Shown here: positions 1,892 to 62,311 of the stretch, piece after piece
Layout of the letters: every line of letters starts with the position of its first letter
How positions within the stretch are numbered: the first letter of the stretch is position 1
Assembly (NCBI GenBank): GCA_035510465.1
Contig: DATKHC010000021.1
Coordinates: 2,876-66,875 of the forward strand
Direction of reading: 5' to 3'
DNA length: 64,000 nucleotides
Source: Candidatus Saccharimonadales bacterium
Lineage (GTDB): Bacteria; Patescibacteriota; Saccharimonadia; Saccharimonadales; DATKHC01
The notes under the pieces: model-generated
What the model saw: the letters and a program-made list of their open reading frames with translations, nothing else
What the model was told of the DNA's origin: nothing
Databases searched by the model: none
Made by a program: the position numbers and the translations under genes

Positions 1892-1898
1892 TACTCTA

Positions 1899-3789: not shown

Positions 3790-5031
3790 ATGAAATATAG
3801 AAAATTGGATGAAAAAGGCTGGGCTCACTGGATCCTACCGGTTATAGTTATCGGACTCTTAACAGCTACAGCCATCCACGTGATCTACAATAGTCATGCC
3901 GCTACTCCCGAGTATATTGCTGTAAACGATCTAGATATTGGTAGGGCAGACTTTCAGACTAACCCCGCAGCTAATCAGCCGTCCACAGCCGTACCGCAAG
4001 TCGCAGAGTCCGCCCAGCAAGCAACTGGAGGGATTCTACCTCCCGACAACCCGTCCGAGAGTTTACCGCCTAATCCGAATTTTAATGGTGATGGAGATTG
4101 TCCTTACTATATCTACAGCAACACTTCGACATGTAACAACAACGTCTTGAGTGCCACCGACAATACCCTAAATGTTCTGGAATCACTACCTCCACTATCT
4201 TTTAATTTAAACGCCTTCCAAAGTCTGACCCCGGAAGAACAAATATTTGTAACTATCAATATAGAGAGGGTGGACAGAGGGTTAACGCCAATAACAGCCC
4301 TAACAACTCAACTTAACGGCGTCGCTCAAACAGGAGCTAGTGATAACACAGACCCAATACTTAGTAGCAACCTAACTGGTAACGTACAAGTTGTGGCTTG
4401 GGCTTCAATTTTTGCCGGAGGGACCAATAACCCACTAGGTTCAGACTATTACTGGATGTACGACGACGGCCCGGGAGGCATTAATGGTGATTGTACCTAC
4501 GCCGGAGAAGCCGGTTGCTGGGGTCACCGCGATGTCATACTTGGAAGTTCCCTATATAGTCAGAATTGCACGAATAACCCAAGTACATATATGGGGACAG
4601 GCTATACGTCTGGCTCTGCTTCTTCGTCAATACTTTCGACGTATGCAGCAATACTTGTTGGGGCATGTGGCGGCACACCCTCCGACGTTGTCTTTACTTG
4701 GCAGCAAGCCCTACAACTCTTAAACGGCACAATAACCCCGCCAGGGGCACCGCAACAAGTTACGGCTACACCCGACAAAAAATCTGTCATTACACTTAAT
4801 TGGCATGCACCAAATAGCGATGGAGGAGCGTCAGTCACTTCCTATAAAATTTATCGTGGCACTAAGCCAGGCAAAGAAAAACTTATCAAGACCGTTAACT
4901 GTACCTTAGCATCGTGTTCATTCAAAAACAGCACGGACCACAAAGATACCACTTACTACTACGTTATAGCAGCAGTTAATTCGGCTGGTGCGGGCCCTAT
5001 TTCGGCTGAAGTTTCGGTAACCTCTTCCTGA
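3790..5031 (+). CDS. Membrane-anchored/secreted protein with a CAP/YkwD-like middle region and a C-terminal fibronectin type III domain
   Basis: N-terminal TM (WAHWILPVIVIGLLTATAIHVIY). The C-terminus PGAPQQVTATPDKKSVITLNWHAPNSDGGASVTSYKIYRG...YYYVIAAVNSAGAGPIS is a typical FN3 pattern. CWGHRDVILG resembles CAP/SCP. Confidence 0.7.
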   Translation: MKYRKLDEKGWAHWILPVIVIGLLTATAIHVIYNSHAATPEYIAVNDLDIGRADFQTNPAANQPSTAVPQVAESAQQATGGILPPDNPSESLPPNPNFNGDGDCPYYIYSNTSTCNNNVLSATDNTLNVLESLPPLSFNLNAFQSLTPEEQIFVTINIERVDRGLTPITALTTQLNGVAQTGASDNTDPILSSNLTGNVQVVAWASIFAGGTNNPLGSDYYWMYDDGPGGINGDCTYAGEAGCWGHRDVILGSSLYSQNCTNNPSTYMGTGYTSGSASSSILSTYAAILVGACGGTPSDVVFTWQQALQLLNGTITPPGAPQQVTATPDKKSVITLNWHAPNSDGGASVTSYKIYRGTKPGKEKLIKTVNCTLASCSFKNSTDHKDTTYYYVIAAVNSAGAGPISAEVSVTSS

Positions 5032-5100
5032 AATCAGACAGACCAAGTAATTTACGAGCACGCACTGAACTTGCTTCTTTTGGGTTTCGTATCATAGTAT

Positions 5101-6099
5101 ATGTTTATGTCAGATCATGAGACAGGTTCAGGTCAGACGCCACCAGAGCGCTTAGCTCAATTAATCGATGGCGTAACACTCCGCCCCGGCATGAGTGCCG
5201 TAGACTACGCGAGGGTCGTAACATCTCATCAAGATAATTGGGTAGATTGGCAGGGCCTTGAGAACGGCCCAGGCGCCTTTACCGATGCTGTTAATCAAAG
5301 TTTTTCTATACTTTTTGCCAACCAACCCCCGGAAGATATTAAAGCGGCTAAGGCCGCTATTCTCGACTATTCTGAGAGAATTAGCGACCGATCACGTGGA
5401 GATTTTCACCAAGGGAGGTTTTTTTCATGGATAGTCCGACTTAAAGGATTAACCAAGAACTCAGCTGGCGCTTCGCAAGGCTTAAGAGTTTATGATGAAG
5501 AGGCTCCACAAGAAGAAACATTCTGGGCAGATATTTACTCTTATTGCGTGAATAAACCTCATCCCATGGAGGCTCTTGGTACATATGTGCTTGGTCCTGA
5601 GATTGAACAAAAAAACCCCACCCTGCTCGCTTCGGTGCTTGAACGACTTGAGATAGAGCTACCTTCTTCAGTCTTTGGTGATAAGGCACTATCGGTGAAA
5701 ACACCCGAAACGCTTGTTCGCTTAGCTTATGACTGTTTCAACAGACTCGTTGTAGAAGCAAGCGATGCTGGCTGGAGAAATGCAGCTATCGTTCAAGCTC
5801 TAAGAGGAAAGTTAGCTGCACAGAATCATCAGTTCCAGTATATGATTAACAAACTCGGAAATCAGGTGACAACCCTTATAAATCGTTTTGCTGTTGAAGA
5901 AGATGGAAGACAACTAGAGTTTTTCGACCTAACTGATCGATATACCACAACTGCCGCAATTGATCGTTGTATGTACTTAATATTCGACCTTGGCAGCACC
6001 CCTGAAGGCCATGATCCTCTTAATTTCCGACTGACCGCCCAAATCATTGTCAGTCTAATAGATGAATCTAACAGACTCTTAGACGAAGCGCAGATGTAA
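5101..6099 (+). CDS. Hypothetical protein
   Basis: 332-aa ORF, soluble, no motif recognised. Confidence 0.5.
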   Translation: MFMSDHETGSGQTPPERLAQLIDGVTLRPGMSAVDYARVVTSHQDNWVDWQGLENGPGAFTDAVNQSFSILFANQPPEDIKAAKAAILDYSERISDRSRGDFHQGRFFSWIVRLKGLTKNSAGASQGLRVYDEEAPQEETFWADIYSYCVNKPHPMEALGTYVLGPEIEQKNPTLLASVLERLEIELPSSVFGDKALSVKTPETLVRLAYDCFNRLVVEASDAGWRNAAIVQALRGKLAAQNHQFQYMINKLGNQVTTLINRFAVEEDGRQLEFFDLTDRYTTTAAIDRCMYLIFDLGSTPEGHDPLNFRLTAQIIVSLIDESNRLLDEAQM

Positions 6100-6122
6100 A
6101 CTTTCCGGTGATAGATTGGTGT

Positions 6123-6563
6123 CTATAGTTTTCTAGCATTATTGTTAGCGACAGAGTTTGTTATTGCTGAACCCCAAGCAGTATTACCGAGTATCCTTCT
6201 CAGCCTACCAACAAGTTTGGCGTCAATAGGTCTAGCTCCTTCGCTTACGACAGTAACGGCGTTGGGTGTTATCTCAAACGACGTCATAGCATGACCTGCG
6301 CCGCCAGCATAGCATTGCAGCACCACTAGCGTTCCGCTAACCCTTTGCCAGATCTCCGCTCGCCTTCTGTATTCATCAGCGAATAAACCCTCTCCCCTTT
6401 TTACCAGTCCTGCTATAAGAACTGCTGTTTCCTGTCTAGGATCTGAATCCTCAGGCAGCACTCTACAAATGTCCGCTTTTTCAGCAAGGATTGTTGTGAT
6501 GTCGTCTCTGAGCCCTTTTTCTTGAGAAGGGTCAGTATCAACTAATCCATCTTCTGTCGCCAT
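6123..6563 (-). CDS. Hypothetical protein
   Basis: 146-aa ORF, acidic N-terminus, no motif recognised. Confidence 0.45.
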   Translation of the reverse strand: MATEDGLVDTDPSQEKGLRDDITTILAEKADICRVLPEDSDPRQETAVLIAGLVKRGEGLFADEYRRRAEIWQRVSGTLVVLQCYAGGAGHAMTSFEITPNAVTVVSEGARPIDAKLVGRLRRILGNTAWGSAITNSVANNNARKL

Positions 6564-6665
6564 AACTCAATTATAGGATAAAGGTATTGGACAGAGTAGT
6601 GTTTGGCCCCTAATTGCAAGGTTTATAACTTGCAAAAATTAGGATATAATTTCCTAAATAACATT

Positions 6666-7052
6666 ATGACAGAGCAATTTGCTAATCAAGCCCCGATGGC
6701 AGACGGTGGGACCTCTCCCAATCAACCGAGTGATTCTGCGGAGAATAGCTCTTCGTCTAATCCTTCGCCTAAGGGTGTAGGTTGGAGAGAACTAAGAATA
6801 CAGATAGTTGGAGGTAGCTTTGCTGAAGGTGGCTGGAGAAGCGATGCTGCTTGCCGTGATATAGATCCTGAAGTTTTTTTCCAAAAAGATGACATTGCTA
6901 TTGAATCTGCCAAAAGAATATGCGGACAATGTGCGGTTCAAATGGAATGTCTAGACTTCGCTATAGCCAACAGAGAAGAGCACGGAATCTGGGGAGGCAC
7001 AAGTGAAAAAGAAAGAAGACAAATTTGGAAAAGACTAAGAACCCGCTGTTAA
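6666..7052 (+). CDS. WhiB-like (Wbl) Fe-S transcription factor
   Basis: Four Cys in the AAC...C-x2-C-x5-C arrangement (CRDID...RICGQCAVQMEC), the GIWGG turn and a basic tail KERRQIWKRLRTR. I prefer the ATG at 6666 over the track's TTG at 6603. A TATAAT lies 18 nt upstream. Confidence 0.8.
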   Translation: MTEQFANQAPMADGGTSPNQPSDSAENSSSSNPSPKGVGWRELRIQIVGGSFAEGGWRSDAACRDIDPEVFFQKDDIAIESAKRICGQCAVQMECLDFAIANREEHGIWGGTSEKERRQIWKRLRTRC

Positions 7053-7124
7053 AAACAAGTTTAGGGCTTAGAACTACATAAATTTGTAAGGACTACTCAA
7101 AAACCGATATAGTAGGTAGACCAA

Positions 7125-9383
7125 ATGTTCAAAAAAATTGCAGAATTTTCAGTAAGGTTTAGGTGGATAATCATCGTTGTTTGGGTTATTGGCATTCCTG
7201 TTGCTGTCAAAGTCTTACCCTCTTTGAGCAGTGTTACTACGTCAAACAATTCCGCTTTTTTACCAGCTTCAAGTCCAAGTGAAAACGCTTCTAAACTCAC
7301 AACGCCATTTCAGGGTAATAATACCTCTGTAACATCCATAATTGTTGCTTCAAATTCTTCCGGACCCTTGACTTCCCAAGACAATCTAGCTATTTCTCGG
7401 TTAGAAGCCAAAGTTAAAGTGCTACCCAATGTTAGTCTAGTGAAAGAGGAAGCAACGTCAAAAGACGGTGAAGTACAGGAGATTTTGGTCGGCTCATCCA
7501 GTTCCGGTTTTGGCGCTGGTAGTCAAAACATGGTTAGTGGGATTCGGAACCTGTTCCCCTCAGCCCAAGCCCCAGCCGATCTGAGCTTTCATTTAACCGG
7601 ATCTTTGGCCGAAGACGTAGATTCGAATAACACGAACAACTCCACCAGAAATAATACGCAAATTTTCATACTCTTATTCATTGTCATCTTGCTATTTTTG
7701 GTTTACAAGTCAGTGCTTGCACCTCTAATAACCCTGATACCTGCCGGTTTATCCCTTGTTCTGGCCAGCCCTATCATCGCAGAATCAACTAAAATTGGTG
7801 TTCAAGTCTCACCAATAACTCAACTACTGCTGATAGTTTTATTGCTTGGTGCGGGAACGGATTATGGAATATTCCTGGTCTTTAGAGTACGAGAAGAATT
7901 AAGGAAAGGTTATGAGCCCAAAGAAGCTGTTGTCCAAGCCTTATCTCGGGTTGGTAAAGTTATAACCTTCTCAGCTTTGACGGTTTCGGCAGCTCTACTT
8001 AGTTTGCTGCTGGCCTCTTTTGGCTTTTACAAGGGCCTTGGACCGGCGCTAGCTATTGGCATTGGAGTCCTGCTCCTAGCTGGCCTTACTCTACTACCAG
8101 CCCTTCTTACGGTTTTTGGCAGAGCGGCTTTCTGGCCAGTAAAGAATCGACCAGTTAAGCAACAGAAGGTAGGGCTCTGGGGACGAGTAGCTGAGAGAGT
8201 AATCACACATCCGGTAATAACATTATTTGTAGGTATCTTAATACTAGGCTCTTTGATGTTTGGCCTGATTGGTTATAAGACAGGCGGTTTTAACAATAGC
8301 GGACCACCAGCAAAAAGTGACTCTGCTATCGGTTCCCAAATAATTGCTGAGCATTTCCCGGCTGCAAACAATAACCCCTCAGAATTGGTCTTAAAGTTTG
8401 CCCAGCCTGTTTGGAATAATTTTAGTGAAGTCGCAAGCGCACAACAAAAGCTATCCTCATCACCAGTTTTTGAATCCATTGAGGGGCCCGTAGACGTTGG
8501 GGGAGCAAAATTGAGCGCAACAGAGATTCCTGGTCTGTACAAAGAGCTTGGCCCACCAGGCTTGTTGCCCCCCATACAACCCGCTACTCTATCCGTCTCA
8601 CCCGCTCTGTACCAAGCCTACCGTTCCACAGCCCAATTTATTAGCCCTGACGGGAAAACTGTACTGTTCTACGCCCTGTTAACTGCTGGTCCATCAGGCT
8701 CTACGGCTGCTGCCTCAGCCACCCCATCTGTTCGAAATGAACTTAGTAGTGTAGCTAGTAGCGTAAGATCAGAAGACAACGGCGTAGTTAGCCAAGATAC
8801 CTTCATCTATGATATTAGCCACATATCAGCAGACGATTTGTATAAAATAGTCCCGGTTGTACTAATAATTATTGCCATCATCCTAGCAATATTGCTTAAA
8901 AGTTTGGTTGCGCCTTGGTACCTCATATTAACCGTTGGGTTCTCATATTTAGCGACCCTTGGCTTCGCGAACCTAGTTTTCGTACATCTAACTAAGAATA
9001 GTACTGGACTAAGCTTTATACTTCCCTTCCTACTATTCATTTTCTGCATGGCCTTAGGTGAAGACTACAATATACTTGTCATGAGCCGAATCCGGGAAGA
9101 AGCTCACGGTAAAGTTCATCTTCGAGATGCCATAACTAAAGCTATAGGCGTGACGGGCACGACAGTTACATCTGCTGGATTAATCCTGGCTGGTACCTTT
9201 GGCGTTTTAGGAATTGTTGGAGGTGGTGGCGCTGGCGGTTCGGAAGTACAGCAAATTGGCTTTTCGATAGCTTTTGGGATATTGCTTGATACTTTCTTTG
9301 TCCGTACTTTGTTTGTGCCTTCTATAGCAGTTCTACTCGGAAAGTGGAACTGGTGGCCGTCTGGTTTAGCGAAAAAAACTTAA
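7125..9383 (+). CDS. MMPL-family (RND superfamily) membrane transporter
   Basis: 752 aa with two 6-TM bundles, each followed by an MMPL signature (GTDYGIFLVFRVREEL and LGEDYNILVMSRIREE). Confidence 0.85.
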   Translation: MFKKIAEFSVRFRWIIIVVWVIGIPVAVKVLPSLSSVTTSNNSAFLPASSPSENASKLTTPFQGNNTSVTSIIVASNSSGPLTSQDNLAISRLEAKVKVLPNVSLVKEEATSKDGEVQEILVGSSSSGFGAGSQNMVSGIRNLFPSAQAPADLSFHLTGSLAEDVDSNNTNNSTRNNTQIFILLFIVILLFLVYKSVLAPLITLIPAGLSLVLASPIIAESTKIGVQVSPITQLLLIVLLLGAGTDYGIFLVFRVREELRKGYEPKEAVVQALSRVGKVITFSALTVSAALLSLLLASFGFYKGLGPALAIGIGVLLLAGLTLLPALLTVFGRAAFWPVKNRPVKQQKVGLWGRVAERVITHPVITLFVGILILGSLMFGLIGYKTGGFNNSGPPAKSDSAIGSQIIAEHFPAANNNPSELVLKFAQPVWNNFSEVASAQQKLSSSPVFESIEGPVDVGGAKLSATEIPGLYKELGPPGLLPPIQPATLSVSPALYQAYRSTAQFISPDGKTVLFYALLTAGPSGSTAAASATPSVRNELSSVASSVRSEDNGVVSQDTFIYDISHISADDLYKIVPVVLIIIAIILAILLKSLVAPWYLILTVGFSYLATLGFANLVFVHLTKNSTGLSFILPFLLFIFCMALGEDYNILVMSRIREEAHGKVHLRDAITKAIGVTGTTVTSAGLILAGTFGVLGIVGGGGAGGSEVQQIGFSIAFGILLDTFFVRTLFVPSIAVLLGKWNWWPSGLAKKT

Positions 9384-9408
9384 GGTTTGTAACTAAGAAG
9401 GGGGACAT

Positions 9409-9708: not shown

Positions 9709-9738
9709 AAATAAACGATAAGCCTATAATGGTTAAGC

Positions 9739-10041: not shown

Positions 10042-10092
10042 TTAGGCCATAATCTTAAGGAAATATAAAGGAAAAGATATTAAGATTTCTCT

Positions 10093-10893: not shown

Positions 10894-10914
10894 GAAGACT
10901 CTTCTTAAGACTTT

Positions 10915-11940
10915 TTATACCGGAAACTCATCTACTAAATATCTGTATTTCTTGTCAGTCAACTTGGAAGTAGACCAATTCATATAAAATCTTGGTAAGT
11001 TTGCTAGTGCATCAACCGAAGCAGATTTTTTTAATTTTTTAAGTCTCCCCTCAGCCGACACGCAATACTGCTTGATAAGCGCAATCGTCGAGCCAAAACC
11101 ACCCAGTTTTATAATTTGATTAACCACTTCGCCTGCATCAACTTCGCGCTTCTTGCTAAGAAGCGACCTCAGCAAATCACTTTCGGCGTTAGCTAAGCTA
11201 GCAATTACGGGATGATTATAGTTACCTTCAACCACATCTCTCATGACAGGTTTGCCAAGTAATTCCTGATTGGATATAAAGTCCTGTAAATCGTCTATTA
11301 ACTGGAACATTATTCCAAAGTCACGCCCGAACTCATTAAGTGCATCTACGACGTTTTCGTCTTTTTTTGAGCTAATTGCACCAATACTAACCGAGGCGCT
11401 AATTAAAGAAGCCGTTTTGCCGGTTATAGCCTTAAACAAAGAGGCCGTAGAACGACTCGTATTGTAAAGGTCTTTAAGTTCCCGGCTTTGGCCATCACAT
11501 AGCTCAATTATTGTTTTTGAAATCAACTCAACGGATTCAGGGTTAATCCCATTGGCTGCTCTGTATGCACAAGCCAGCAAAAAATCGCCAAATAATATTG
11601 CTTGGCTGTCTCCCTCTAGGGCATTGGCAGTGGGAATGCCTCGCCGAACCGATGAGCCGTCCATTATGTCGTCATGGACTAAACTACTTAAATGAACTAA
11701 CTCGATGGACGTGCCAGCTGCGATCACTTTATCATCAATATCCGCTCCCGTAACCCCAGCTGAAACCATAACAAGAGCAGATCTTAGTCGCTTGGACTTG
11801 GCCTTTGTATAATGGGTCCCTAGTTTTTTGAAAGTTGGGTTAGAGGTATCAAGCACTTGCAGAAACGCTGTCTCAACTTTTTTCTCGTCTTCAACCAAAT
11901 TAGGTAAATTTAGAACCGATGATAGGTCTAGTGTGTTCAC
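10915..11940 (-). CDS. Polyprenyl diphosphate synthase (trans-isoprenyl, IspB/GGPPS-like)
   Basis: Both Asp-rich motifs are present: LVHDDIMD...RRG and FQLIDDLQD. It is the last gene of the cyo cluster. Confidence 0.85.
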   Translation of the reverse strand: MNTLDLSSVLNLPNLVEDEKKVETAFLQVLDTSNPTFKKLGTHYTKAKSKRLRSALVMVSAGVTGADIDDKVIAAGTSIELVHLSSLVHDDIMDGSSVRRGIPTANALEGDSQAILFGDFLLACAYRAANGINPESVELISKTIIELCDGQSRELKDLYNTSRSTASLFKAITGKTASLISASVSIGAISSKKDENVVDALNEFGRDFGIMFQLIDDLQDFISNQELLGKPVMRDVVEGNYNHPVIASLANAESDLLRSLLSKKREVDAGEVVNQIIKLGGFGSTIALIKQYCVSAEGRLKKLKKSASVDALANLPRFYMNWSTSKLTDKKYRYLVDEFPV

Positions 11941-11999
11941 AATCCTACATACTATAGCTGATCATTGGACTAAAAGCATGCTCAGCAGACCCTAGTCAG

Positions 12000-12875
12000 T
12001 TACGATAGGTAGGCATTTAGAGACAGCATTACGGGCAGAGCTATGATCACTATGAGTGAGAAGAAGAACATTCTTCGTGCCCAGAGCTTATCGTTGCTAG
12101 TCCTAAAGCCCTTTAAGCCCAGCCAGAGCCAAACAAGAGCGAAAGCTAGAGTTACTACCAGGTAACTATATCCAGCATAGCCAAAGATGCTCAGGAGGCT
12201 GACCGCAACCGCGTAGGCAATAATATAGATGATAATTCGTAACTTAGTTGCGTACATGCCTTTCTTTACAGGCAGCACAGGAAGCCCAGCATTTTTGTAA
12301 TCATCGAAGCGGTACATAGCGATTGAGTAGAAATGAGGCATCTGCCATAAGACTAGAATCAGGAATAGTATGACAGCCGCGCCGTTGAACTGACCCGTCA
12401 CCGCACAGTAACCGGCAGTTATAGGCGCCGCTCCGGCAATACTACCAACAACCGTTCCGTGCACTGATCGTCTCTTGGAAATGCCATAAAAAACTACGTA
12501 CACCAAAAAGGCAATCAGACCGATACAAACGGTTAACCAGTTTGTGTAGACAGATAATATCAGTGTTCCTAGTATGCCAAGTACAGTCCCGTAAATTATG
12601 GCAGCCCGTGAACTTAAATCACCTATTACTAAAGCCCGCTTGCTTGTTCTGGACATCTTTTTATCAATACCTCGGTCAATATAATTATTAAAAACGCAGC
12701 CTGATCCAATAACTAAGCTGATACCAATTAAGGTTTCAAGCAGGAGCAGGAAATGTATATGACCTTTGGAAGCGAGCAAAAAACCGCCCGTTGCTGTGAT
12801 TAAATTGCCATATATAATACCCGGCTTAGTCAGTCGGTAATAGGTTTTTAAGGTACCAGTGTTAAAAGCCGCCAC
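12000..12875 (-). CDS. cyoE: Protoheme IX farnesyltransferase (heme O synthase)
   Basis: 291 aa, polytopic UbiA-family pattern (YYRLTKPGIIYGNL...NNYIDRGIDKKMSRT). Overlaps the cyoD end. Confidence 0.9.
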   Translation of the reverse strand: MAAFNTGTLKTYYRLTKPGIIYGNLITATGGFLLASKGHIHFLLLLETLIGISLVIGSGCVFNNYIDRGIDKKMSRTSKRALVIGDLSSRAAIIYGTVLGILGTLILSVYTNWLTVCIGLIAFLVYVVFYGISKRRSVHGTVVGSIAGAAPITAGYCAVTGQFNGAAVILFLILVLWQMPHFYSIAMYRFDDYKNAGLPVLPVKKGMYATKLRIIIYIIAYAVAVSLLSIFGYAGYSYLVVTLAFALVWLWLGLKGFRTSNDKLWARRMFFFSLIVIIALPVMLSLNAYLS

Positions 12876-13248
12876 CTTGATTGTTCAAATAAGTATTAAC
12901 CTGCTCTGGCGTATATTGCTGTCGATAATTAAGGTTATTCATTATCCAAAGTGAGCCGAAAACTAAAATTGAAATAACTCCTATCATAAAAATTAGCACA
13001 AACAACTTCCAGCGAGGTTTTGATTCTTTACCTAAATGTAAGAAAAATATTAACTGAACGATGAACTGGATCATGGCGAGCCCAACTATTAAAATTACTA
13101 TGTTCCTGGGCGACAGAGCATGATGAACTACGAGCAAATAGGCGGTGACAGTAAATACAACCGAGAGGATATACCCCGTGAAATATGATCTAAACGACCC
13201 GTGCTCTGCGTTGTGGTGAGATACGACCGATGACGTTTTAGCGCTCAT
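12862..13248 (-). CDS. cyoD: Cytochrome o quinol oxidase subunit IV
   Basis: Three TM helices, GSFRSYFTGYILS motif and operon position. The ATG at 13248 gives an ATGA overlap with the cyoC stop. The track start at 13296 is probably too long. Confidence 0.75.
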   Translation of the reverse strand: MSAKTSSVVSHHNAEHGSFRSYFTGYILSVVFTVTAYLLVVHHALSPRNIVILIVGLAMIQFIVQLIFFLHLGKESKPRWKLFVLIFMIGVISILVFGSLWIMNNLNYRQQYTPEQVNTYLNNQGGGF

Positions 13249-13859
13249 CCCTGCACCGCTCCTCTCAGATAAACAATTGTGAATATGAATATCCAAATGA
13301 TATCCAGAAAATGCCAGAACAGGCTAAGCATAGTTAGTCTTCTGATGGTTGACGACTTAAGACCAGATTTAGCTACCCTTACAATTAGAACAAGCATCCA
13401 AAGCAAGCCAACGCTAATGTGAAGTCCATGTGTCCCAACTAGAGCAAAGTATGAAGACAAGAAACCACTCCGTGTCCAACTATTACCAGTGTGGGCAAGG
13501 TGCGTAAATTCTACAAGTTCCATAATCAAAAATGCCAGCCCTAGCAAAAATGTAATCGTAAACCAACCAACCACTTTGGTTTTATGGTTGTGTCGCGCCG
13601 CCAGAATTGCTAGCCCGCACGTAAAGCTACTGGTAAGTAGGATAATCGTTTCGGTCAGTATGTAGGGAAGACTAAATAGCTGCCTGCCATCTGGGCCGCC
13701 ATTAGTATTGTTATTCAAAACTGCGTAGGTAGCAAAAAGACTTGCAAACAAGACACAGTCCGTCATTATGTATACCCAAAAACCAAAAAGGTTTTTATCG
13801 AATTTTTTTTGCACAAATGTACTATTTGTAACCGGGTGGGTTGACGCAACTTCACTCAT
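13245..13859 (-). CDS. cyoC: Cytochrome o quinol oxidase subunit III
   Basis: 204 aa, 5 TM, C-terminal WHFLDIIWIFIFTIVY motif of the subunit III family. Confidence 0.85.
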   Translation of the reverse strand: MSEVASTHPVTNSTFVQKKFDKNLFGFWVYIMTDCVLFASLFATYAVLNNNTNGGPDGRQLFSLPYILTETIILLTSSFTCGLAILAARHNHKTKVVGWFTITFLLGLAFLIMELVEFTHLAHTGNSWTRSGFLSSYFALVGTHGLHISVGLLWMLVLIVRVAKSGLKSSTIRRLTMLSLFWHFLDIIWIFIFTIVYLRGAVQG

Positions 13860-15856
13860 GCGTAGCCCCTCCCCGGGGATAATTCAACCTCGATCTTCTC
13901 GACTTCATCCGCTGTTATTACTTGTTCGGTATTATCACTAGTTGTGTAAATAATTATGGTTAAGATCACGCCCAGAAGTCCAACTATTGCCAGCCACCAA
14001 ATATGCCAGACTGCACTAAACCCAAGTATCAAACTGAAGCCAGCGATAATTATGCTAGCGCCCGTGTGTTTTGGCATAATTATATCTTCGTATTCTGATT
14101 TCTTCTGCTTAACTCCCTTGGCTCGGGCTTGTTTCATTTCCCAGAACGGATCTCGGCTATTTACCTCGGGCTCAATCGCAAAATTGTAGAATGGAGCCGG
14201 GGAACTAGTTGACCACTCAAGCGTCCTGCCATTCCACGGGTCTCCGGTTGTATCCAGGTTTTGTTTTCTTTGAAAAATACTGACGACGATCTGCAAGAAA
14301 AGCATTGCTGCTCCCAGCGCAATGATGCTTGCGCCAATCCCGGCTACTATAAACAGCGGGTGCCATCCCGTGGCAACGCTATAGTGATCGATTCGTCTAG
14401 TAGCTCCCATCAAACCTAGTATGTACAGCGGCACAAAGGCAAGCAGGAACCCAATGAACCAAAGCCAAAAAGAGTATCTTCCAAGTTTTTCGTTTAACTT
14501 AAACCCAAAGATCTTTGGAAACCAGTAATTTAGACCTGCAAAATACCCGAACAAGGCTCCCCCGACTATCATGGTATGAAAATGGGCTACAAGAAATAGA
14601 CTATTATGAAGCTGAAAGTCAGCCGGCGGCACAGCCATAACTACACCAGCTACTCCGCCCACCGTAAACAACCCGACAAACCCAAGAAACCAATACATTG
14701 GTGTTTTAAAGCTAATCTTTCCTCTAAACATGGTCGCAATCCAATTGAATATTTTTACGCCTGTAGGAATCGCGATAATCATAGTCATAATACCGAAGAA
14801 GCCATTGACGTCAGCACCCGCGCCCATCGTAAAGAAGTGGTGTAACCAAACGCTGAAAGACAAGACTACGATAGCTCCAATTGCCCAGACCATGGTTGTA
14901 TAACCAAATAGTCTCTTTCTTGAAAAAGTTGCCACGACTTCAGAATAGATACCGAACGCAGGCAAGATCAAAATATATACTTCGGGATGACCCCAGGCCC
15001 AAATCAAATTAACGTACATCATTAAATTACCCCCTCCAGCCGCCGTGAAGAAGTGCGTTCCAATCGTTCGATCCATATATAGCAGCGTCAGGGTTACTGT
15101 TAGGATTGGGAAAGCAAATATAACTAGAAACATGGTCCCTAAAACGCTCCAACTAAACATAGGCATTTTCATCATTGTCATGCCTTTGCAGCGCATCTTA
15201 ATAATTGTTACGAAGAAATTAACTCCCGATAGCAAGCTTCCAATCCCCGCTATCTGTAGGCTCCATATCCAATAGTCAACACCAACGCTGGGACTATACT
15301 GAAGTTCAGAAAGTGGTGGATAAGCTAACCAACCAGCTGCCGAAAAATCGCCGATAATTAGCGATAGATTGACAAGTATCATGCCAGAAGCAAACAACCA
15401 AAAACTGGTGAGGTTTAGAAACGGAAAGGCGACATCACGTGAACCAAGTTGTATCGGAAGAATCAGATTTATTAGCCCAAACATTAAACCCATGGCAACA
15501 AAAAAGATCATTATTGTGCCATGAGAGGAAAATATTTGTTGGAAAGTATTGGCTGATACTATTCCGTGAGATGCCCCAACAGAAGTAGCTTGTTGAGCCC
15601 GCAGTAGTAGCGCATCAGATCCTCCGCGAACCAGCATGATGAGCGCGACAACGATGTACATAACACCAATTTTTTTAGGATCCGGATTTGTTAACCACTC
15701 CCGCCAAAGCCAACGCCACCTTTTTTTGTAGGTTAGAAAGGCAGCTAGGCCCACTACTAGTAATACCATTGAGACTGCCGCCCCTGCAGTTATTGGGGCG
15801 GTCGGGAACTGATTGAAGGACAATTTGCCGAGTAAATTAGCGAACAGATTCATCAT
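13856..15856 (-). CDS. cyoB: Cytochrome o quinol oxidase subunit I (heme-copper oxidase)
   Basis: 666 aa with classical heme-copper motifs (WAWGHPEVYILILPAFG, HHFFTMG, VAHFH). Confidence 0.95.
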   Translation of the reverse strand: MMNLFANLLGKLSFNQFPTAPITAGAAVSMVLLVVGLAAFLTYKKRWRWLWREWLTNPDPKKIGVMYIVVALIMLVRGGSDALLLRAQQATSVGASHGIVSANTFQQIFSSHGTIMIFFVAMGLMFGLINLILPIQLGSRDVAFPFLNLTSFWLFASGMILVNLSLIIGDFSAAGWLAYPPLSELQYSPSVGVDYWIWSLQIAGIGSLLSGVNFFVTIIKMRCKGMTMMKMPMFSWSVLGTMFLVIFAFPILTVTLTLLYMDRTIGTHFFTAAGGGNLMMYVNLIWAWGHPEVYILILPAFGIYSEVVATFSRKRLFGYTTMVWAIGAIVVLSFSVWLHHFFTMGAGADVNGFFGIMTMIIAIPTGVKIFNWIATMFRGKISFKTPMYWFLGFVGLFTVGGVAGVVMAVPPADFQLHNSLFLVAHFHTMIVGGALFGYFAGLNYWFPKIFGFKLNEKLGRYSFWLWFIGFLLAFVPLYILGLMGATRRIDHYSVATGWHPLFIVAGIGASIIALGAAMLFLQIVVSIFQRKQNLDTTGDPWNGRTLEWSTSSPAPFYNFAIEPEVNSRDPFWEMKQARAKGVKQKKSEYEDIIMPKHTGASIIIAGFSLILGFSAVWHIWWLAIVGLLGVILTIIIYTTSDNTEQVITADEVEKIEVELSPGRGYA

Positions 15857-16746
15857 TCGCTCATCCCCGCCATACCCATCATTTGCCCTCCAGGAGCCAA
15901 ATACTTATCGATTATCGTATTATACAGACCTGTTTGAGCTGATGCGTAATACGAAGGTGGGTTGTACTCACTTGGCTGGAGCAATTTATTGTACTGCGCC
16001 ATGCTAAGTTTGCTAGAAGAATCCTTAATATTTTTTACCCAGGAGTTGAAAGCAGCATTTGAGCTAGACTTGGCAGTAAAGGTCATCCCAGCAAAGCCTT
16101 GGCCACTTATATTAGCGGATGAGCCACTAAAGCTGCCGTACTGACTTGCCATCAAATGTAACTGAGTCGACATACCCGGCATGACATACATTTGACCACC
16201 AAGCTGGGGAATCCAGAATGAATTCATAACAGAGTCTGAGGTTAGCTCAAAACTCAGTGGTGTATTTTTCGGGAACTGGAAAAGGTTGACTGAGGCAATG
16301 TTCTGCTGAGGATAGATAAATAACCATTTCCAATCAAGCGACACTACCTGAATTGTAAGTGGGGGAGTTGTTGAACTGAGCGGTTTATACGGATCGAGTT
16401 GATGCGAAGAATCCCACGCAATCACAGCAAGAACAGTAATAATAATCGACGGTATCAACCACCAGATAGTTTCTGCGATTTTGTTACCATCAAGCTCAGG
16501 GCTATATTTTGCCTTCGTATTCGTTTCCCTATATCTCCATGCGAAAAGAATCGTAAGTGTGTAGACAGGGATAACAACTATCAGCGCTAGAGCCAGAGCA
16601 ATAAAAATGAGCTTTCGCTCTTTGTAGGCGACTGGACCTTTCGGATTTAAGACAGCTATACTGGAGTGATGCAGATAATTAGCCGCAACTGCCAAGAAGC
16701 CTAATACTATAACTGCGATTAGGATTTTTTTGTATGTCTTTCTCAT
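15853..16746 (-). CDS. cyoA: Cytochrome o quinol oxidase subunit II
   Basis: 297 aa, two N-terminal TM plus a cupredoxin domain. DSVMNSFWIPQLGGQMYVMPGMSTQLHL resembles CyoA. The CuA ligands (CxExC) are absent, so this is a quinol oxidase, not a cytochrome c oxidase. Confidence 0.9.
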   Translation of the reverse strand: MRKTYKKILIAVIVLGFLAVAANYLHHSSIAVLNPKGPVAYKERKLIFIALALALIVVIPVYTLTILFAWRYRETNTKAKYSPELDGNKIAETIWWLIPSIIITVLAVIAWDSSHQLDPYKPLSSTTPPLTIQVVSLDWKWLFIYPQQNIASVNLFQFPKNTPLSFELTSDSVMNSFWIPQLGGQMYVMPGMSTQLHLMASQYGSFSGSSANISGQGFAGMTFTAKSSSNAAFNSWVKNIKDSSSKLSMAQYNKLLQPSEYNPPSYYASAQTGLYNTIIDKYLAPGGQMMGMAGMSE

Positions 16747-24413: not shown

Positions 24414-24809
24414 TCAAGCTTTCTTGGTTTCCCAAAAAATTTTAGAGATTTGCTCGATTTGTTCCAGTAATTTTTCACCTACTTGTGGATCCACACTCCT
24501 TTTGGTGTCTGAAGCAGCTTTCGTAGCATGCCAAAACAAATCGTGTAGATTGGGATATTTCTCAAGATGTTCCGGTTTAAAGTAATCGCTCCAGAGAACC
24601 CAAAGATGATGTTTAACTAGTTCAGCCCGCTCCTCTTTGATGAAAATTGCTCTAGTTTTATCTTGTTCGCTCAGGCCATCATATTTTTTCATTATGCCGA
24701 CTACCGACTCTGCCTCAATCTTAGCCTGGGCTGGATCGTATACACCGCAAGGCAAGTCGCAGTGAGCATAGACCGGTTTAATAAACTCGTTTAATATTCT
24801 TAGTTTCAT
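24414..24809 (-). CDS. sodN: Nickel superoxide dismutase precursor
   Basis: Ni-hook HCDLPCGVYDP after a 15-aa propeptide. The rest (AELVKHHLWVLWSDYFKP...IFWETKKA) closely follows Streptomyces SodN as I remember it. Confidence 0.95.
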   Translation of the reverse strand: MKLRILNEFIKPVYAHCDLPCGVYDPAQAKIEAESVVGIMKKYDGLSEQDKTRAIFIKEERAELVKHHLWVLWSDYFKPEHLEKYPNLHDLFWHATKAASDTKRSVDPQVGEKLLEQIEQISKIFWETKKA

Positions 24810-55799: not shown

Positions 55800-55829
55800 T
55801 GGTGGAGGTAATGGGACGTTACTTGAACC
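55800..55829 (+). repeat. Diverged R1/att-like copy at the left border of the GC-rich island
   Basis: TGGTGGAGGTAATGGGAC-gttac-TTGAACC versus the tRNA-Leu(CAG) 3' end strand TGGTGGGGATGAGAGGAC-TCGAACC. That is 13/18, a 5-nt insertion, then 6/7. Confidence 0.6.
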
Positions 55830-56230
55830 ATTCTGACCAGGGAGAATGCCTCCGGAACCTCCTCGAAATGCTCCCATCTGGGTCCAAAACGGCGAAAGTT
55901 CGAACCCCAAGGCGGGTCTGCCGGCGTCTCGACCCATCCCGCGTGGAGGACCTAATCCGGGGCTACATAGAGGGAGTGCCGGTCGATGATCTCGCCACCC
56001 AGTTCGGGGTTGATCAGAGCACCGTCCAGAAGCACGCTCGCCGACATGACTTGCCCCGCCGGTCACCCCGATTAGGTCCTAACCAGACCGAGGAGGCAGT
56101 TCGGCTCTATCTCGCTGGTCAGTCCTTGGCCAAACTGTCCGATCACTTCGGTGTTGCGACTGACACCGTCGCTCTTGCTTTGCGTAGAACCGGGGTCACC
56201 TTGCGACCACGGCGGGGGTGGTCGAAGTAG
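55802..56230 (+). CDS. Tandem helix-turn-helix DNA-binding protein
   Basis: Two HTH units: VPVDDLATQFGVDQSTVQKHARR and QSLAKLSDHFGVATDTVALALRR. GTG start inside the att-like repeat. Confidence 0.6.
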   Translation: MEVMGRYLNHSDQGECLRNLLEMLPSGSKTAKVRTPRRVCRRLDPSRVEDLIRGYIEGVPVDDLATQFGVDQSTVQKHARRHDLPRRSPRLGPNQTEEAVRLYLAGQSLAKLSDHFGVATDTVALALRRTGVTLRPRRGWSK

Positions 56231-56447
56231 CTCGTTTTCAGGTTCCCGTAGAGGGATCAGACCGTCGATGCGACGCCAGTCAATCTATCCGTTTCAGCGT
56301 TGTCAGCCGTCGGCCTCTGATCGCAGATCACTCTTTGGCTCACTCTTCAAGAGGTCAGATTTAGATTGTCGGGTTGTTGTCGTACAATAGAAACACTATG
56401 AAGAGGGGATGTGACGTGGAGACTGAGTTGCGGGTGGACGGTACGTC

Positions 56448-57323
56448 ATGACGATGGCTGAGGTACCGAATAAATTTGAAGATAAGATTCTTCGGAGAGA
56501 TGAGTTCGCCGCACACTACGAAGTCGTTACGGATCTCCCAGATATCAGCGAAGGCCGTCAATCGAGGGTCTCGGTATTGCGGTTCAAAATCGGCGGTGAA
56601 TCAGAAGAGCTGGTTGTATGGAAACGGATGGGCGTTGGCAAACACCTAACCAAACGAGAAGCTCAGTTTCTGCATTCTCGCTTACGGACGTATCGTCGTA
56701 GCCTGCGAACCTCTGGTTGGAACATTCCGAAGCTTTTTCATACTCATGTGGCCAAGGTCGACATGGAATGGCAGGTATTGAGTTATGAACAGTTCATCCC
56801 AGGTGGGGATGCCGACCACATGTTCAAGAAAGCAAATATTCCGAACTATCGGAAGTGGTTCTTAATTCGAACTGCTCTTGAGACGCTAGCAGAATATGAC
56901 CAGCATCTAATTGGTCCGACCACCATTGAGGGTCAACAAGTGACGTTACTCCCTCACGGTATTGATCTGAAGCTTGCAAATCTCGTCAACGACGAAGGCC
57001 AGGTGTGGTTCGTGGATCTGTTCGGGCCGAAGGAACTCGAGGATGGAGAGTGGGTGAGCTACAACTCAAAACTCGATCATCTATCGGAAGAACGTTTGAA
57101 GGCGGTGACGGCCACAAGAGAAGGAAGTGTATTGCGCCTATTCCGACTCGCAGAAGAGAGTTGGCTGGAAAGTGGGTCAATCCAGAGGGAGACTCTTCAA
57201 GACAACTTCGAGGACGTCCTCGAACAATCAGGTATTCCAGAGCGCGAGGCTACGTTCATCATGGATCAGATCCGATCCGACTACCCGTGGCTCGACAAGC
57301 TCTACTCGGAGGAGCTTGTCTAG
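56448..57323 (+). CDS. Protein-kinase-like fold protein
   Basis: LVVWKR (VAIK-like Lys), HGIDLKLANLV (HxDxxxxN catalytic loop) and WFVDLFGP (DFG-like) occur in the correct order and spacing. Confidence 0.55.
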   Translation: MTMAEVPNKFEDKILRRDEFAAHYEVVTDLPDISEGRQSRVSVLRFKIGGESEELVVWKRMGVGKHLTKREAQFLHSRLRTYRRSLRTSGWNIPKLFHTHVAKVDMEWQVLSYEQFIPGGDADHMFKKANIPNYRKWFLIRTALETLAEYDQHLIGPTTIEGQQVTLLPHGIDLKLANLVNDEGQVWFVDLFGPKELEDGEWVSYNSKLDHLSEERLKAVTATREGSVLRLFRLAEESWLESGSIQRETLQDNFEDVLEQSGIPEREATFIMDQIRSDYPWLDKLYSEELV

Positions 57324-57566
57324 CTGACAAGTAAGGTTCCTTGAGGATATTCAGCGTACCGACCGACGGTGGATCGGACATCGGAGATGCGCAACTCTCA
57401 GCGGTCGCGCACCCACCGGTCAGCCTGACTACGGGGCCATTTCACTCCTCCCACGCCGCCCTGGCCAATGCCTCACTGAGGTCACGCCGTTTAGGCACTT
57501 CTACGGAGTCTCGGGATCCTTAGAAAGCCCCCGGGCATGCCCAAAGTCTGTACGAACGGATGAACC

Positions 57567-57668
57567 ATGGAGCAGCGCAGACTGATGAATCAGGCAATCT
57601 TCGGCAAGCTGTACGTCAACGAAGGTGGAAATATCCGGAGTCCTAAGCTGCGTGTTCGAGAGATGTGA
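57567..57668 (+). pseudogene. Possible C-terminal remnant of a large serine recombinase
   Basis: The 33-codon ORF MEQRRLMNQAIFGKLYVNEGGNIRSPKLRVREM resembles the RRxLNQAxFxKxYV segment I recall near the C-terminus of actinobacterial serine recombinases. Upstream frames are broken. Confidence 0.25.
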
Positions 57669-57873
57669 TCCGGACGCCGTGATCATCAAGCACTCGGTTG
57701 TGGTCAGTTACAGCAGCCTTAATCGCTTTGATGTCGTCCTCAATCTTAGAAATATGAGCTACAGACTTCTTGATTTCACGGCTGTCAGCCTGAAGAAGAG
57801 ACATGCCCTCAGCTAATGCTTGCATCTTGCCGTCTATGTCTTCAAGTAGTACTTCGAGGTGATCTTTTTTCAC
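57643..57873 (-). CDS. Small coiled-coil protein, last gene of the minus-strand operon
   Basis: 76 aa, heptad-like, low GC (23/60 in one line) within the GC-rich island. Confidence 0.4.
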   Translation of the reverse strand: MKKDHLEVLLEDIDGKMQALAEGMSLLQADSREIKKSVAHISKIEDDIKAIKAAVTDHNRVLDDHGVRITSLEHAA

Positions 57874-57954
57874 GATAGATCAATTCTAACATGCGCAACC
57901 AAAATGCGGACACGCACATCTTGATCCTCGAAGATGCGTATTGCTCTATCTACC

Positions 57955-59161
57955 CTAAGTCACACGCCCTTCTACAAAGTTGTTGACTAATTCTGCTAGA
58001 ACAGTATCCGGAACATCGAAGAACTCAAATACCATAAAGAGGGGCTCCACTAGACTGCGAACCAAGTCGACAAGATTTGTTTGGAGCTCTGCGAGCGTGC
58101 AGTCAATCGTTGAACTAACGGCTTCTTCTTGCGTGGTCCGAGCTTGATGCATAAGCCGGTTGCCGGCTGATCGGAGATCCCTTCCTCTGAGTCCACCGTG
58201 TACCACTTCGATATGTAGCTGCGTGGAATCAGGCGCCTCCAATCGAGTGTAACAGCGAGCCAAAAACAACAGGAGCTCGGTGATTCGAATAATTCGTGTG
58301 TCAAAGAAAATCGACCCAGGCAGCCTTTCATCTTCAAATAGACTGCTGAGGAGGTAGAAGTCACCAGTTCGACGCACATACCAATAGTCGTAAGTGCCGT
58401 GTTCTCGAAAACCATCACCAGCAGGTAGAGATACTTCGGCGCGAACTCCATCTGCAGTTGGTTGTGGTCTCATATTATCGCGACTTAGTACTATTCCTAT
58501 TGGCCAGCCGAAGGTCTTGACTTGAGACTCCTCGACCGACGAAAGCAGCACAGACTGACGCCATGTACCCTTCGGTAACAGTGAAACGGACGCCTCCATG
58601 TAACCCTCGAGGTGTACTACTGCGAGACCAGATAAAGCCCTTTCACGTTGCTCATCTATCCATTCTGTGTCGACCGCAGGTTGCGGCTGAATCGGAGTTT
58701 TGTCAGGTTCACCGGGCAGTGGCGGCTCGATGATTGCCAAACGTCGCTTTATCCGCTTCTCCAGCTCTTCTCGGAACTCCGCCGGTTTCTTACTATCCCA
58801 AAGCAACCGGTCATATCCTTCTAGGTCAAAATGAACATGGGGACCATCATGTTTGTAGTTTGGGCTGCTGTGATGATGGTCCTCACGAACCGTAAGGATG
58901 AGATTGCGTTTCTTGCCAAGACCCATTGCATATCCGACTTCCAAGTAACAATTCGGTCGCTCGTTTGTTAGATCGGCGACAATAATCTGCGAGCTTTCAA
59001 GGAACGCCACGATCTCAGACTTAAGGAGCTCTCCGGAATTGTCCCGATCGACTCTCTTGGGGGGCGAGCCCACACGCTTCGATCGCAGGAACAATAACGC
59101 TGTCACAGATGCGATCCATTTCGGCATCGCCTATCTGCATGATGATGAATGCATCATCCAT
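57955..59161 (-). pseudogene. Nucleoside 2-deoxyribosyltransferase/TIR-like N-terminal domain fused to an unknown ~260-aa domain; frameshifted in a G6 run
   Basis: The ATG at 59161 gives MDDAFIIMQIGDAEMDRICDSVIVPAIEACGLAP. After the run 59059-59064 the frame shifts to KRVDRDNSGELLKSEIVAFLESSQIIVADLTNERPNCYLEVGYAMGLGK (track ORF 57955..59127). Removing one G restores a ~401-aa ORF. Confidence 0.6.
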
Positions 59162-59176
59162 TCTTACAAATCCTTG

Positions 59177-59614
59177 TCATCCCGCCTCTTTACCGTTGGC
59201 TCGCCGCTCGGCGTCCCTCTGGATGGCGACCTCGAGAAGGAGCTGCGCCAACTTGTCCACCTTGATATCCGACCTGGCCAGTGAGTGGATACGGATTCTA
59301 CCCCTCTGACCTCGTGGAGCTTTCGTCTGGGTTGGCTCACGGTCACTCGGCCCGGGGTCGCTCGGCTTGAGCGCTTGACGTATCCGGAGATAGAGCTTGC
59401 CCGCTCGATGAGGAAGAGACGGATGGTCAGCAGTAACGAGCTGGCGATGGAGGACGGCGTCCTTATCGTTGAGCTTCTTGGTCAGCGCGTAGAAACCATG
59501 AAGCTCTAGTTGCTGGGCGTAAGGCAAGATGGTGAAGACATTGCGGTTGCTGTTCCATACTTCGAGAAGGAACTGACGTTGCTCTAAGTAATCGTGATTC
59601 GTTAAACGTGGCAC
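59177..59614 (-). CDS. Hypothetical protein, first gene of the operon
   Basis: 145-aa ORF with a GTG start embedded in an inverted repeat. No motif recognised. Confidence 0.45.
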   Translation of the reverse strand: MPRLTNHDYLEQRQFLLEVWNSNRNVFTILPYAQQLELHGFYALTKKLNDKDAVLHRQLVTADHPSLPHRAGKLYLRIRQALKPSDPGPSDREPTQTKAPRGQRGRIRIHSLARSDIKVDKLAQLLLEVAIQRDAERRANGKEAG

Positions 59615-59662
59615 CGGTACATTGCTCTCTTACGCAATCAGTGTCTCATACATGTACCGGTG
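59612..59662. promoter_or_regulatory. 11-bp perfect inverted repeat overlapping the start codon of 59177..59614
   Basis: CACCGGTACAT, 29 nt, ATGTACCGGTG. A third CCGGTACAT lies at 59759-59767 inside the palindrome GGTACATCGTGTACC. Confidence 0.5.
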
Positions 59663-59816
59663 AGCAAAATACCTTGACGGACTTGAACCATTTAACAGCG
59701 GTCGCGATTTTGGGGTTGAGTGACAACCAGTGACGCGTAGCCACACGGTTTTGGTTGTCCGGTACATCGTGTACCTCTGTTATAGTGGGATCTATTCTAT
59801 ACTATTCCTATAGTTA

Positions 59817-59902
59817 TGGTGGGGATGAGAGGACTCGAACCTCCACGGGCTATGCCCACTAGTACCTGAAACTAGCGTGTATACCAATTTCACCACATCC
59901 CC
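59817..59902 (-). tRNA. tRNA-Leu (anticodon CAG)
   Basis: Manual fold: GGGGATG acceptor, anticodon loop TTCAGGT, long variable arm, T-loop TTCGAGT, encoded CCA. Confidence 0.85.
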
Positions 59903-61739: not shown

Positions 61740-61952
61740 TTAAATAAGTACTCGGATAACTAAAGATATGCTAAAGGTGGTAGCCATTAAAATAGTTAGC
61801 AGGTATAGAGTCTTTTCGGAACCTCGTCTAACAATATTAATTTCTCCACTTGAACCAAGTCCTGCCCCAAGCGTTGCTCCTCTAGTTTGAATCAAAATAA
61901 GAAAAACCATAAGGATCATTGATATAACTGTTATGTAGTTTAAGGCCTTCAT
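61740..61952 (-). CDS. secG: Preprotein translocase subunit SecG
   Basis: 70 aa, two TM helices with a G-rich loop (QTRGATLGAGLGSSGE). Confidence 0.7.
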   Translation of the reverse strand: MKALNYITVISMILMVFLILIQTRGATLGAGLGSSGEINIVRRGSEKTLYLLTILMATTFSISLVIRVLI

Positions 61953-62311
61953 TCTCTCTCCAATATTGTTGACACTAAGTAGTTTACCAAGCCGATAACC
62001 ATACCGGCAAGTATAGCTGCTCCAAAGCCAGACACTTGTAGTGATGGATATATATAGCTAACGAGTAGCAGCATTAACCCATTGATGACTACTACGAATA
62101 GTCCAAGCGTAAAAAGGATAGCCGGTAGCGACAGGAGTACCACGAGAGGTTTAATTATTGCGTTTACAAGTGCCAGAATAAAGCCAGCAACGATTAAACT
62201 GAGTCGATCGTTATAGCTAATCCTCTGGTCTAGCAATCCCGATGCCACCCACAAACCAACGCCACAGATAAACCATGATATTACAAATCGGCCGATGGGT
62301 CCTCGTCTCAT
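61949..62311 (-). CDS. DUF360 / holin-superfamily-IV-like membrane protein
   Basis: 120 aa, 4 TM, with LALVNAIIKPLVVLLSLPAILFTLGLFVVVINGLML typical of DUF360. Confidence 0.65.
   Translation of the reverse strand: MRRGPIGRFVISWFICGVGLWVASGLLDQRISYNDRLSLIVAGFILALVNAIIKPLVVLLSLPAILFTLGLFVVVINGLMLLLVSYIYPSLQVSGFGAAILAGMVIGLVNYLVSTILERE

Follow-up and report, generated by a model that had tools for sequence, protein, structure and literature searches.

The window analysed here, a stretch of 64,000 nucleotides, encodes at 6666..7052 a WhiB-like (Wbl) protein and, directly downstream, a transporter of the MMPL family (7125..9383). Taking relatives, composition and gene context together, we think it likely that the Wbl gene is functional and that it was acquired horizontally, and on its own, by a bacterium of the candidate phyla radiation (CPR). 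An earlier note on this DNA had proposed that both genes were transferred between phyla as a pair. That proposal appears to hold for the Wbl gene, which has no orthologue in sister genomes and at most about 55% core identity to any relative, and it fails for the MMPL gene, which nests in a Saccharibacterial clade. The features of the region are as follows.

6666..7052, forward strand: Wbl gene, 128 aa (Pfam PF02467, PDB matches, AF2/Foldseek)
6831..7052, forward strand: Wbl core, residues 56-128, with the cluster ligands, aromatic patch, beta-turn and basic C-terminal tail
7053..7124, forward strand: Wbl-MMPL spacer, 72 nt, with a promoter-like match at 7084..7113 (TTGTAA-18-TATAGT)
7125..9383, forward strand: MMPL-family RND transporter, 752 aa, two modules (Pfam PF03176, neighbour-joining tree)
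6622..6650, forward strand: sigma-70-like promoter match TTTATA-17-TATAAT (10/12), ending 15 nt before the Wbl ATG
6123..6563, reverse strand: open reading frame (ORF) of 146 aa, divergent neighbour, not shown to belong to the system

Wbl identity, motifs and fold

On every criterion of sequence and fold, the product of 6666..7052 belongs to the Wbl family. The Pfam model Whib (PF02467) spans it over model positions 1-65 of 65 (86.2 bits, E 2e-24, cutoff 23.6), and PHROG 472 (WhiB) matches with 82.5 bits. The annotation from the NCBI pipeline is already WhiB, and a search of NCBIfam gave no fitting model. Sequence matches in the PDB were led by Streptomyces WhiB (8dy7_H, 67.5 bits), with WhiB1 at 58 bits. 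The full Wbl signature described earlier for this ORF (four cysteines with C-x2-C-x5-C, GIWGG, a basic tail) was located residue by residue. The cysteines C63, C86, C89 and C95 have the spacing C-Xn-C-x2-C-x5-C, occupy invariant columns of a 36-sequence Wbl alignment and pair with those of WhiB and WhiB1. The beta-turn G107-I-W109-G-G111 matches the family pattern G(V/I)WGG, and the basic tail is EKERRQIWKRLRTRC. In addition, W57, F71, F72 and W109 align with W3, F17, F18 and W60 of WhiB1, which form the aromatic patch (AP1-4) for binding of sigma-A region 4 (PMC13013590). Judged from its sequence, the gene is intact and keeps every residue class for a [4Fe-4S] cluster and for docking to sigma region 4.

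The AF2 model gave pLDDT values of 70-89 for the core (residues 56-128) and of about 50 for residues 1-55, a low-complexity N-terminal extension rich in S, P and N that is predicted to be disordered. All significant Foldseek matches of the model in the PDB were Wbl structures. The top 13 were all WhiB1, WhiB, WhiB3 or WhiB7 (probability 0.96-1.00, target-normalised TM-score 0.55-0.69), with E-values of only about 1e-3 because the Wbl domain is small. By these comparisons the protein comes nearest to WhiB1 and the WhiB/WhiB2 types, and to the Wbl proteins of phages.

Host assignment, Wbl relatives and origin

Five proteins of the window (Wbl, MMPL, LeuRS, CoxI and LigA) each have an identical counterpart on a single contig of 223,769 bp, which belongs to a metagenome-assembled genome (MAG) named Candidatus Saccharimonadales bacterium. 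The window would accordingly be assigned to Candidatus Saccharimonadales (Patescibacteria/CPR). The earlier note had made its transfer idea depend on a genome that is not actinobacterial, and the label carried by these five proteins, LeuRS and LigA included, agrees with this.

A HMMER search of 1.84 billion representative proteins returned 37,242 Wbl proteins at E<=1e-3 and the query alone at E<=1e-30. The best core identities, 50-55% over 74 core columns, were to metagenomic proteins and Wbl proteins of the mycobacteriophage type, and over the same columns identity was 46% to Streptomyces WhiB and 46% to WhiB1 of Mycobacterium tuberculosis (Mtb). Actinophage records gave 976 matches, the best at 52% identity. 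A scan of genome contigs with the single Wbl protein gave 82 pattern matches and no relatives. No Wbl orthologue was found in the sister genomes, whose MMPL proteins are 78-79% identical to that of the window; their proteins are within the searched collection, and the Wbl gene therefore arose or survives in the window lineage only.

Gene context was inspected for five of the nearest Wbl relatives, and was phage-like for two of them (P0002 and P0128) and cellular for three (L090, L091 and L092). P0002 lies among many small ORFs, a DNA methylase gene and PG_binding genes on contigs of 69-70% GC, and P0128 on a contig of 71% GC with YqaJ, RusA and RNase_T genes; the cellular locus L090 has a GC of 0.69. 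The orphan status of the window gene and the phage-borne position of two of its nearest relatives are therefore the signature of a horizontally acquired gene. Its composition resembles that of its surroundings (GC 0.45; GC3, the GC at third codon positions, 0.318 vs 0.35-0.46 for neighbouring genes), and the gene order of the window recurs on an independent Logan contig (19,286 bp). A chimeric assembly was rejected on both of these grounds, and a recent arrival from a donor of 70% GC was rejected on the host-like composition.

Two of the relatives have an unusual domain arrangement. L091 (GCA_039738615.1, GC 0.41) encodes at 5001..5534 a 177-aa protein with two tandem Wbl domains, adjoining a type I restriction-modification system, and P0128 likewise has two Wbl domains.

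The MMPL transporter

As the earlier note had read it, the downstream gene encodes a two-module MMPL transporter with both GxDY...RxREE motifs. Pfam MMPL (PF03176) matches it in two stretches (343.6 bits), and the motifs lie at G244-T-D246-Y247...R254-x-R-E257-E258 and G645-E-D647-Y648...R655-I-R657-E-E659, with D246-Y247 and D647-Y648 invariant among 12 MMPL homologues. Among solved structures MmpL4 and MmpL5 come nearest (about 185 bits), and not MmpL3. The scores fall short of the MmpL3 equivalog model NF052608 of NCBIfam (84.7 bits vs a cutoff of 1400) and of TIGR00833 for the actII subfamily (387 vs 874.7), and with no NCBIfam subfamily cutoff reached the product is, on these models, a generic MMPL protein.

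A word-index search with the MMPL protein gave 5,950 homologues, of which the best 120 were 55-79% identical to it. The named ones among these 120 were mostly from Saccharimonadales or Saccharibacteria, some of them on contigs of 0.9-1.1 Mb. The closest 80 MMPL loci were then taken from GTDB contigs, one genome per species; about 60 of them come from high-GC phyla (Actinomycetota, Chloroflexota or Dormibacterota). MMPL identity to the window was 52-75% for the Patescibacteria/Saccharimonadales MAGs and 45-58% for Actinomycetes, Acidimicrobiia, Chloroflexota and Dormibacterota. In a neighbour-joining tree of 82 MMPL sequences the window groups as ((window,(L005,L007)),L009), followed by L010 and then L011. 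The clade that holds it consists almost entirely of Saccharibacterial loci, with the high-GC phyla outside. Because it is nested in this clade and has close homologues there, the MMPL gene looks old and vertically inherited within Saccharibacteria, and the check on vertical inheritance that the earlier note had called for thus speaks against a transferred pair. An ancient exchange of MMPL genes with other Terrabacteria may have occurred. In the same tree, the MMPL proteins of two Actinomycetes MAGs (L012 and L013, GC 0.62; 57-58% identical) fall inside the Saccharibacterial clade, a placement that could reflect transfer from Saccharibacteria to Actinomycetes, mis-binning or a tree artefact.

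Gene order upstream of the MMPL gene

As had been noted before, the Wbl and MMPL genes run in the same direction with 72 nt between them, and no terminator-like hairpin was predicted in this spacer (7053..7124). The further claim that they form an actinobacterial-type gene pair found no match among the relatives. Six-frame translations of all loci were searched with a hidden Markov model (HMM) built from 150 Wbl sequences. In the 80 species-representative loci, of which about 60 are high-GC, and in L005, L007 and L008, it detected no Wbl gene within 5 kb of the respective MMPL homologue. The pair is likewise not syntenic in relatives, where MarR genes or unrelated genes stand upstream of the MMPL gene. 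A MarR-family gene of 148-149 aa lies directly upstream in L005 and L007/L008, and related MarR genes occupy the same slot in L014, L020 and L021. The other Saccharibacterial loci have genes for an FMN reductase, Fic, TauE, a histidine kinase or uncharacterised ORFs at this position.

DNA homology between the window and its relatives starts at the MMPL start codon. Across the window genes from 705 to 18851, the MMPL gene is shared with the relatives' loci, together with a weak match for the polyprenyl synthase, and nothing else. No MarR remnant was detectable in the window, and a search for repeats flanking the Wbl gene gave only short matches at chance level. The divergent ORF at 6123..6563 has no Pfam or PHROG match and no homologue in any comparison locus. 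From these gene-order comparisons, the Wbl and MMPL genes are neither a transferred pair nor an actinobacterial-type pair, and their adjacency is unique. The simplest history would be an ancestral MarR-MMPL arrangement, proposed because MarR-MMPL occurs in two separate Saccharibacterial subclades, with the regulator slot now held by Wbl in the window lineage.

Wbl genes in a second Saccharibacterial lineage

One of the ten best Wbl matches (P0135) lies on a contig of 45% GC, L092, with the gene order dnaE, CAP-domain gene, spoU, pilB, Wbl, Wbl, malic enzyme gene. The PilB protein of L092 has 74-76% identity to proteins that bear the name Candidatus Saccharibacteria or Saccharimonadales, and that of a further locus, L095, is 82% identical to it. 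The Wbl genes of these two loci are as follows.

L092, 4526..5450: two Wbl genes, between pilB and the malic enzyme gene
L095, 6663..7067: one Wbl gene, between pilB and the malic enzyme gene

Two other loci, L093 and L094 (PilB 82% and 76% identical, respectively), have no Wbl gene, and their pilB abuts the malic enzyme gene. The Wbl proteins of L092 and L095 are 43-49% identical to the window Wbl and, at this identity, not its orthologues. They have N-terminal extensions of about 55-75 residues, and L092a and L095 have part of this extension in common (FEDYATTQGDWE and FEDFATTKSDWD). Because the loci are unrelated, the syntenic L093 and L094 lack Wbl and the proteins are non-orthologous, the comparison indicates at least two independent, lineage-specific Wbl insertions in Saccharibacteria.

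Proposed history and mechanism

We propose that the Wbl gene entered by horizontal transfer once the window lineage had separated from the nearest relatives that have been sequenced. Actinobacteria or actinophages would probably have supplied it, as two of the nearest relatives examined are phage-borne. The route may have been the episymbiosis of Saccharibacteria with Actinobacteria, which experiments have established as the hosts of cultured Saccharibacteria (PMC10746230). Since then, the gene would have been kept under selection, its composition now being host-like.

The protein most likely works as elsewhere in the family, with cluster and sigma binding predicted. From what is known of the family (PMC6282962; PMC13013590), holo-Wbl would bind region 4 of the primary sigma factor through W57, F71, F72 and W109 and so change promoter use, and oxidation or nitrosylation of the cluster upon attack by O2 or NO would act as a switch. 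Such a redox switch would suit an aerobic, soil-type Saccharibacterium with an oxidase operon, a Ni-superoxide dismutase and an NDH-2-like oxidoreductase. In the slot of MarR, the Wbl protein may also have taken over local control, or its gene may be co-transcribed with that of the transporter. Control of, or co-transcription with, the MMPL gene is a tentative idea that we consider rather doubtful, and the link between a redox regulator and a lipid exporter suggested in the earlier note finds no support in the comparisons with relatives.

Several observations weigh against the proposed acquisition of a functional Wbl gene by a Saccharibacterium. The assignment of the window to Candidatus Saccharimonadales is based on submitters' labels and the MMPL tree. 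A neighbour-joining tree of the Wbl core has no sister group above 33/200 bootstraps and hence names no donor, and low-GC Wbl genes also occur on L091, on L096 (GC 0.40, 804 kb) and on viral contigs of low GC, which means that the gene may have come from a source other than a high-GC host. As the Wbl protein is a singleton, purifying selection on it is not directly measurable. No Shine-Dalgarno sequence is visible before the gene, which, with the promoter match ending 15 nt from the ATG, hints at a very short leader, and promoter-like sites are no commoner in this region than in shuffled sequence. No sigma-70 region 4 was found in the window or in any comparison locus with Mtb SigA and E. coli RpoD sequences as queries. 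In addition, of about 21 Saccharibacterial loci only 5 have MarR ahead of the MMPL gene, which makes its replacement by Wbl a parsimony argument and not a demonstrated event.

Alternative explanations

A low-GC, genome-reduced actinobacterium of the acI-like kind, in which Wbl would be native, could be imagined as the source of the window, given that other low-GC contigs also bear Wbl genes (e.g., L096, which has an Lnt-like gene as well). However, all five proteins looked up are labelled Candidatus Saccharimonadales on a single contig, and the MMPL protein nests among Saccharibacteria, Saccharimonadales and Patescibacteria MAGs of several independent studies, some of them with contigs of 0.8-1.1 Mb. 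A native gene of the WhiB1/WhiB2 type should also have close orthologues, and none was found among the 1.84 billion proteins, so that we regard this explanation as highly improbable. Joint arrival of Wbl and MMPL from an actinobacterial host would account for two adjacent, co-oriented genes with no predicted terminator between them, and Actinomycetes do have MMPL proteins 45-58% identical to that of the window. It is contradicted by an MMPL protein that is 75-79% identical to those of relatives without Wbl and lies deep inside the Saccharibacterial clade, by the absence of Wbl within 5 kb of MMPL from all 80 species-representative loci, and by DNA homology to relatives that begins exactly at the MMPL start codon; we give it almost no credence.

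That the Wbl gene is a remnant of phage or host DNA, neutral or in decay and without function in the Saccharibacterium, is unlikely, although its singleton status and sporadic distribution, the lack of a Shine-Dalgarno sequence and the predicted disorder of its first 55 residues would fit, and Wbl partners are documented only in Actinobacteria (PMC6282962; PMC13013590). Against this, the frame is intact, and the four cysteines, the four residues of the aromatic patch and the beta-turn are all kept despite host-equal composition and an identity of <=55% to all relatives; Wbl genes are also retained in two related genomes of the second Saccharibacterial lineage. The protein might instead act on sigma-A region 4 of an actinobacterial host, delivered across the episymbiotic contact in the manner of a phage Wbl. 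The phage-borne nearest relatives examined (P0002 and P0128), the sigma-A region 4 binding of phage Wbl proteins (PMC13013590), the actinobacterial hosts of cultured Saccharibacteria (PMC10746230) and the unusual disordered N-terminal extension would all be in line with this. The protein has no secretion signal, though, its gene has no secretion-system neighbour, and an oxygen-labile Fe-S protein is poorly suited to export, which makes such delivery very unlikely. Equally improbable, in our view, is the broader version, in which Saccharibacteria would have captured Wbl at least twice, each time independently, from the actinobacterial/actinophage pool, and the window Wbl would be no housekeeping regulator but an inter-bacterial effector that reprograms host transcription in the course of episymbiosis.

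Other features of the window

The window has a GC of 0.41-0.46, except for 0.51-0.52 at 56-60 kb, and contains the core genes trmD, rpsP, rnc, nusB, leuS, ddl, a Mur ligase gene, ligA and uvrC. No WhiA or sigma gene was seen in it. Its aerobic gene set includes a haem-copper oxidase operon, an NDH-2-like oxidoreductase, a Ni-superoxide dismutase and FAD-linked oxidases. Further features are listed below.

10915..16746, reverse strand: haem-copper oxidase operon (COX2 with COX_ARM, COX1, COX3, COX4), then UbiA-family prenyltransferase and polyprenyl synthase
24414..24809, reverse strand: nickel-containing superoxide dismutase (Pfam Sod_Ni, E 1.7e-45)
55802..56230: transposase or resolvase-type helix-turn-helix ORF, within a higher-GC block
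56448..57323, 57955..59127 and 59177..59614: three ORFs without a Pfam match, within the same block
59817..59902: tRNA-Leu(cag), at the end of the block
61949..62311, reverse strand: ORF matching Pfam PF04020, 'Mycobacterial 4 TMS phage holin, superfamily IV' (E 5e-25)

The oxidase operon lies 1.5 kb downstream of the MMPL gene and points to an aerobic lifestyle; L007 retains polyprenyl synthase and UbiA genes near its MMPL gene. Ni-superoxide dismutase is best known from Streptomyces and cyanobacteria, and its gene is another of actinobacterial flavour in the window. The higher-GC block at 55800..59900 (0.51-0.52 vs 0.41-0.45 elsewhere) resembles a genomic island that integrated next to a tRNA gene. 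The ORF of the holin family is located between an aminopeptidase P gene and a gene for an SBP_bac_5 solute-binding protein. At 3790..5031, a 413-aa protein is encoded that has a hydrophobic segment at its N-terminus and an fn3 domain at its C-terminus, and its unannotated residues 73-312 are 41-46% identical to ORFs in the Actinomycetes loci L044, L056 and L058, where these ORFs lie 0.85-2.8 kb upstream of MMPL. It could represent a second inter-phylum exchange or an MMPL-linked accessory gene.

Significance

Reviews and a structural and phylogenetic study from 2026 confine the Wbl family to Actinobacteria and actinophages (PMC6282962; PMC13013590). The window gene lies outside this reported taxonomic range, which is a statement about distribution and no bar to family membership. 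Among the papers searched, and judged on titles and abstracts, we found none on a Wbl protein in Saccharibacteria, Patescibacteria or the candidate phyla radiation. A Wbl gene in a CPR episymbiont is thus a real, moderately surprising extension of the range of a known family, and would reflect an exchange of genes between episymbionts and the gene pool of Actinobacteria or phages. The MMPL gene and its pairing with Wbl are ordinary. Metagenomic phages are called 'actinophages' with whiB as a marker (bioRxiv 10.1101/2023.05.30.542503), a rule that is slightly weakened by the presence of Wbl genes in CPR genomes. That at least two Saccharibacterial lineages have Wbl genes which are intact and native in composition suggests that the mechanism based on Wbl and sigma region 4 may be transplantable to a quite dissimilar bacterium with a minimal genome, and it raises the testable question of whether Wbl function depends on actinobacterial sigma-A.

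Comparison with known systems

The window Wbl resembles WhiB/WhiB2 and WhiB1 (S. venezuelae WhiB, 8DY7/8DY9; Mtb WhiB1, 6ONO/5OAY) in its four cysteines, the G(I/V)WGG turn, the W/FF/W patch and the basic tail, and its predicted fold superposes on theirs with target-normalised TM-scores of 0.61-0.69. It differs from them in a host labelled Candidatus Saccharimonadales, a core identity of about 46% and an additional disordered N-terminal extension of 55 residues. With actinophage Wbl proteins (mycobacteriophage WhiB genes; PHROG 472 and 1333) it shares the best or equal-best core identities, 52-54% among the matches listed, which include a sample from a viral scan with a 7-sequence Wbl alignment, whereas the window gene is chromosomal, with cellular flanks, no adjoining phage genes and host-equal composition.

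In gene order, the window is similar to the MarR-MmpL pairs of the Saccharibacterial loci L005, L007, L014, L020 and L021, where a small, co-oriented regulator gene lies directly upstream of MMPL. A mycobacterial example of such a pair is MmpR5/Rv0678 with MmpS5-MmpL5, and the window transporter is likewise nearest to MmpL4 and MmpL5 among solved structures. Unlike the regulators of these pairs, that of the window is a Wbl Fe-S protein without the MarR winged helix. A parallel within Saccharibacteria is provided by the Wbl insertions of L092 and L095, which are also found on low-GC contigs (0.45), encode proteins with long N-terminal extensions and have closest syntenic relatives without Wbl, but these insertions sit between pilB and the malic enzyme gene and their products are 43-49% identical to the window Wbl.

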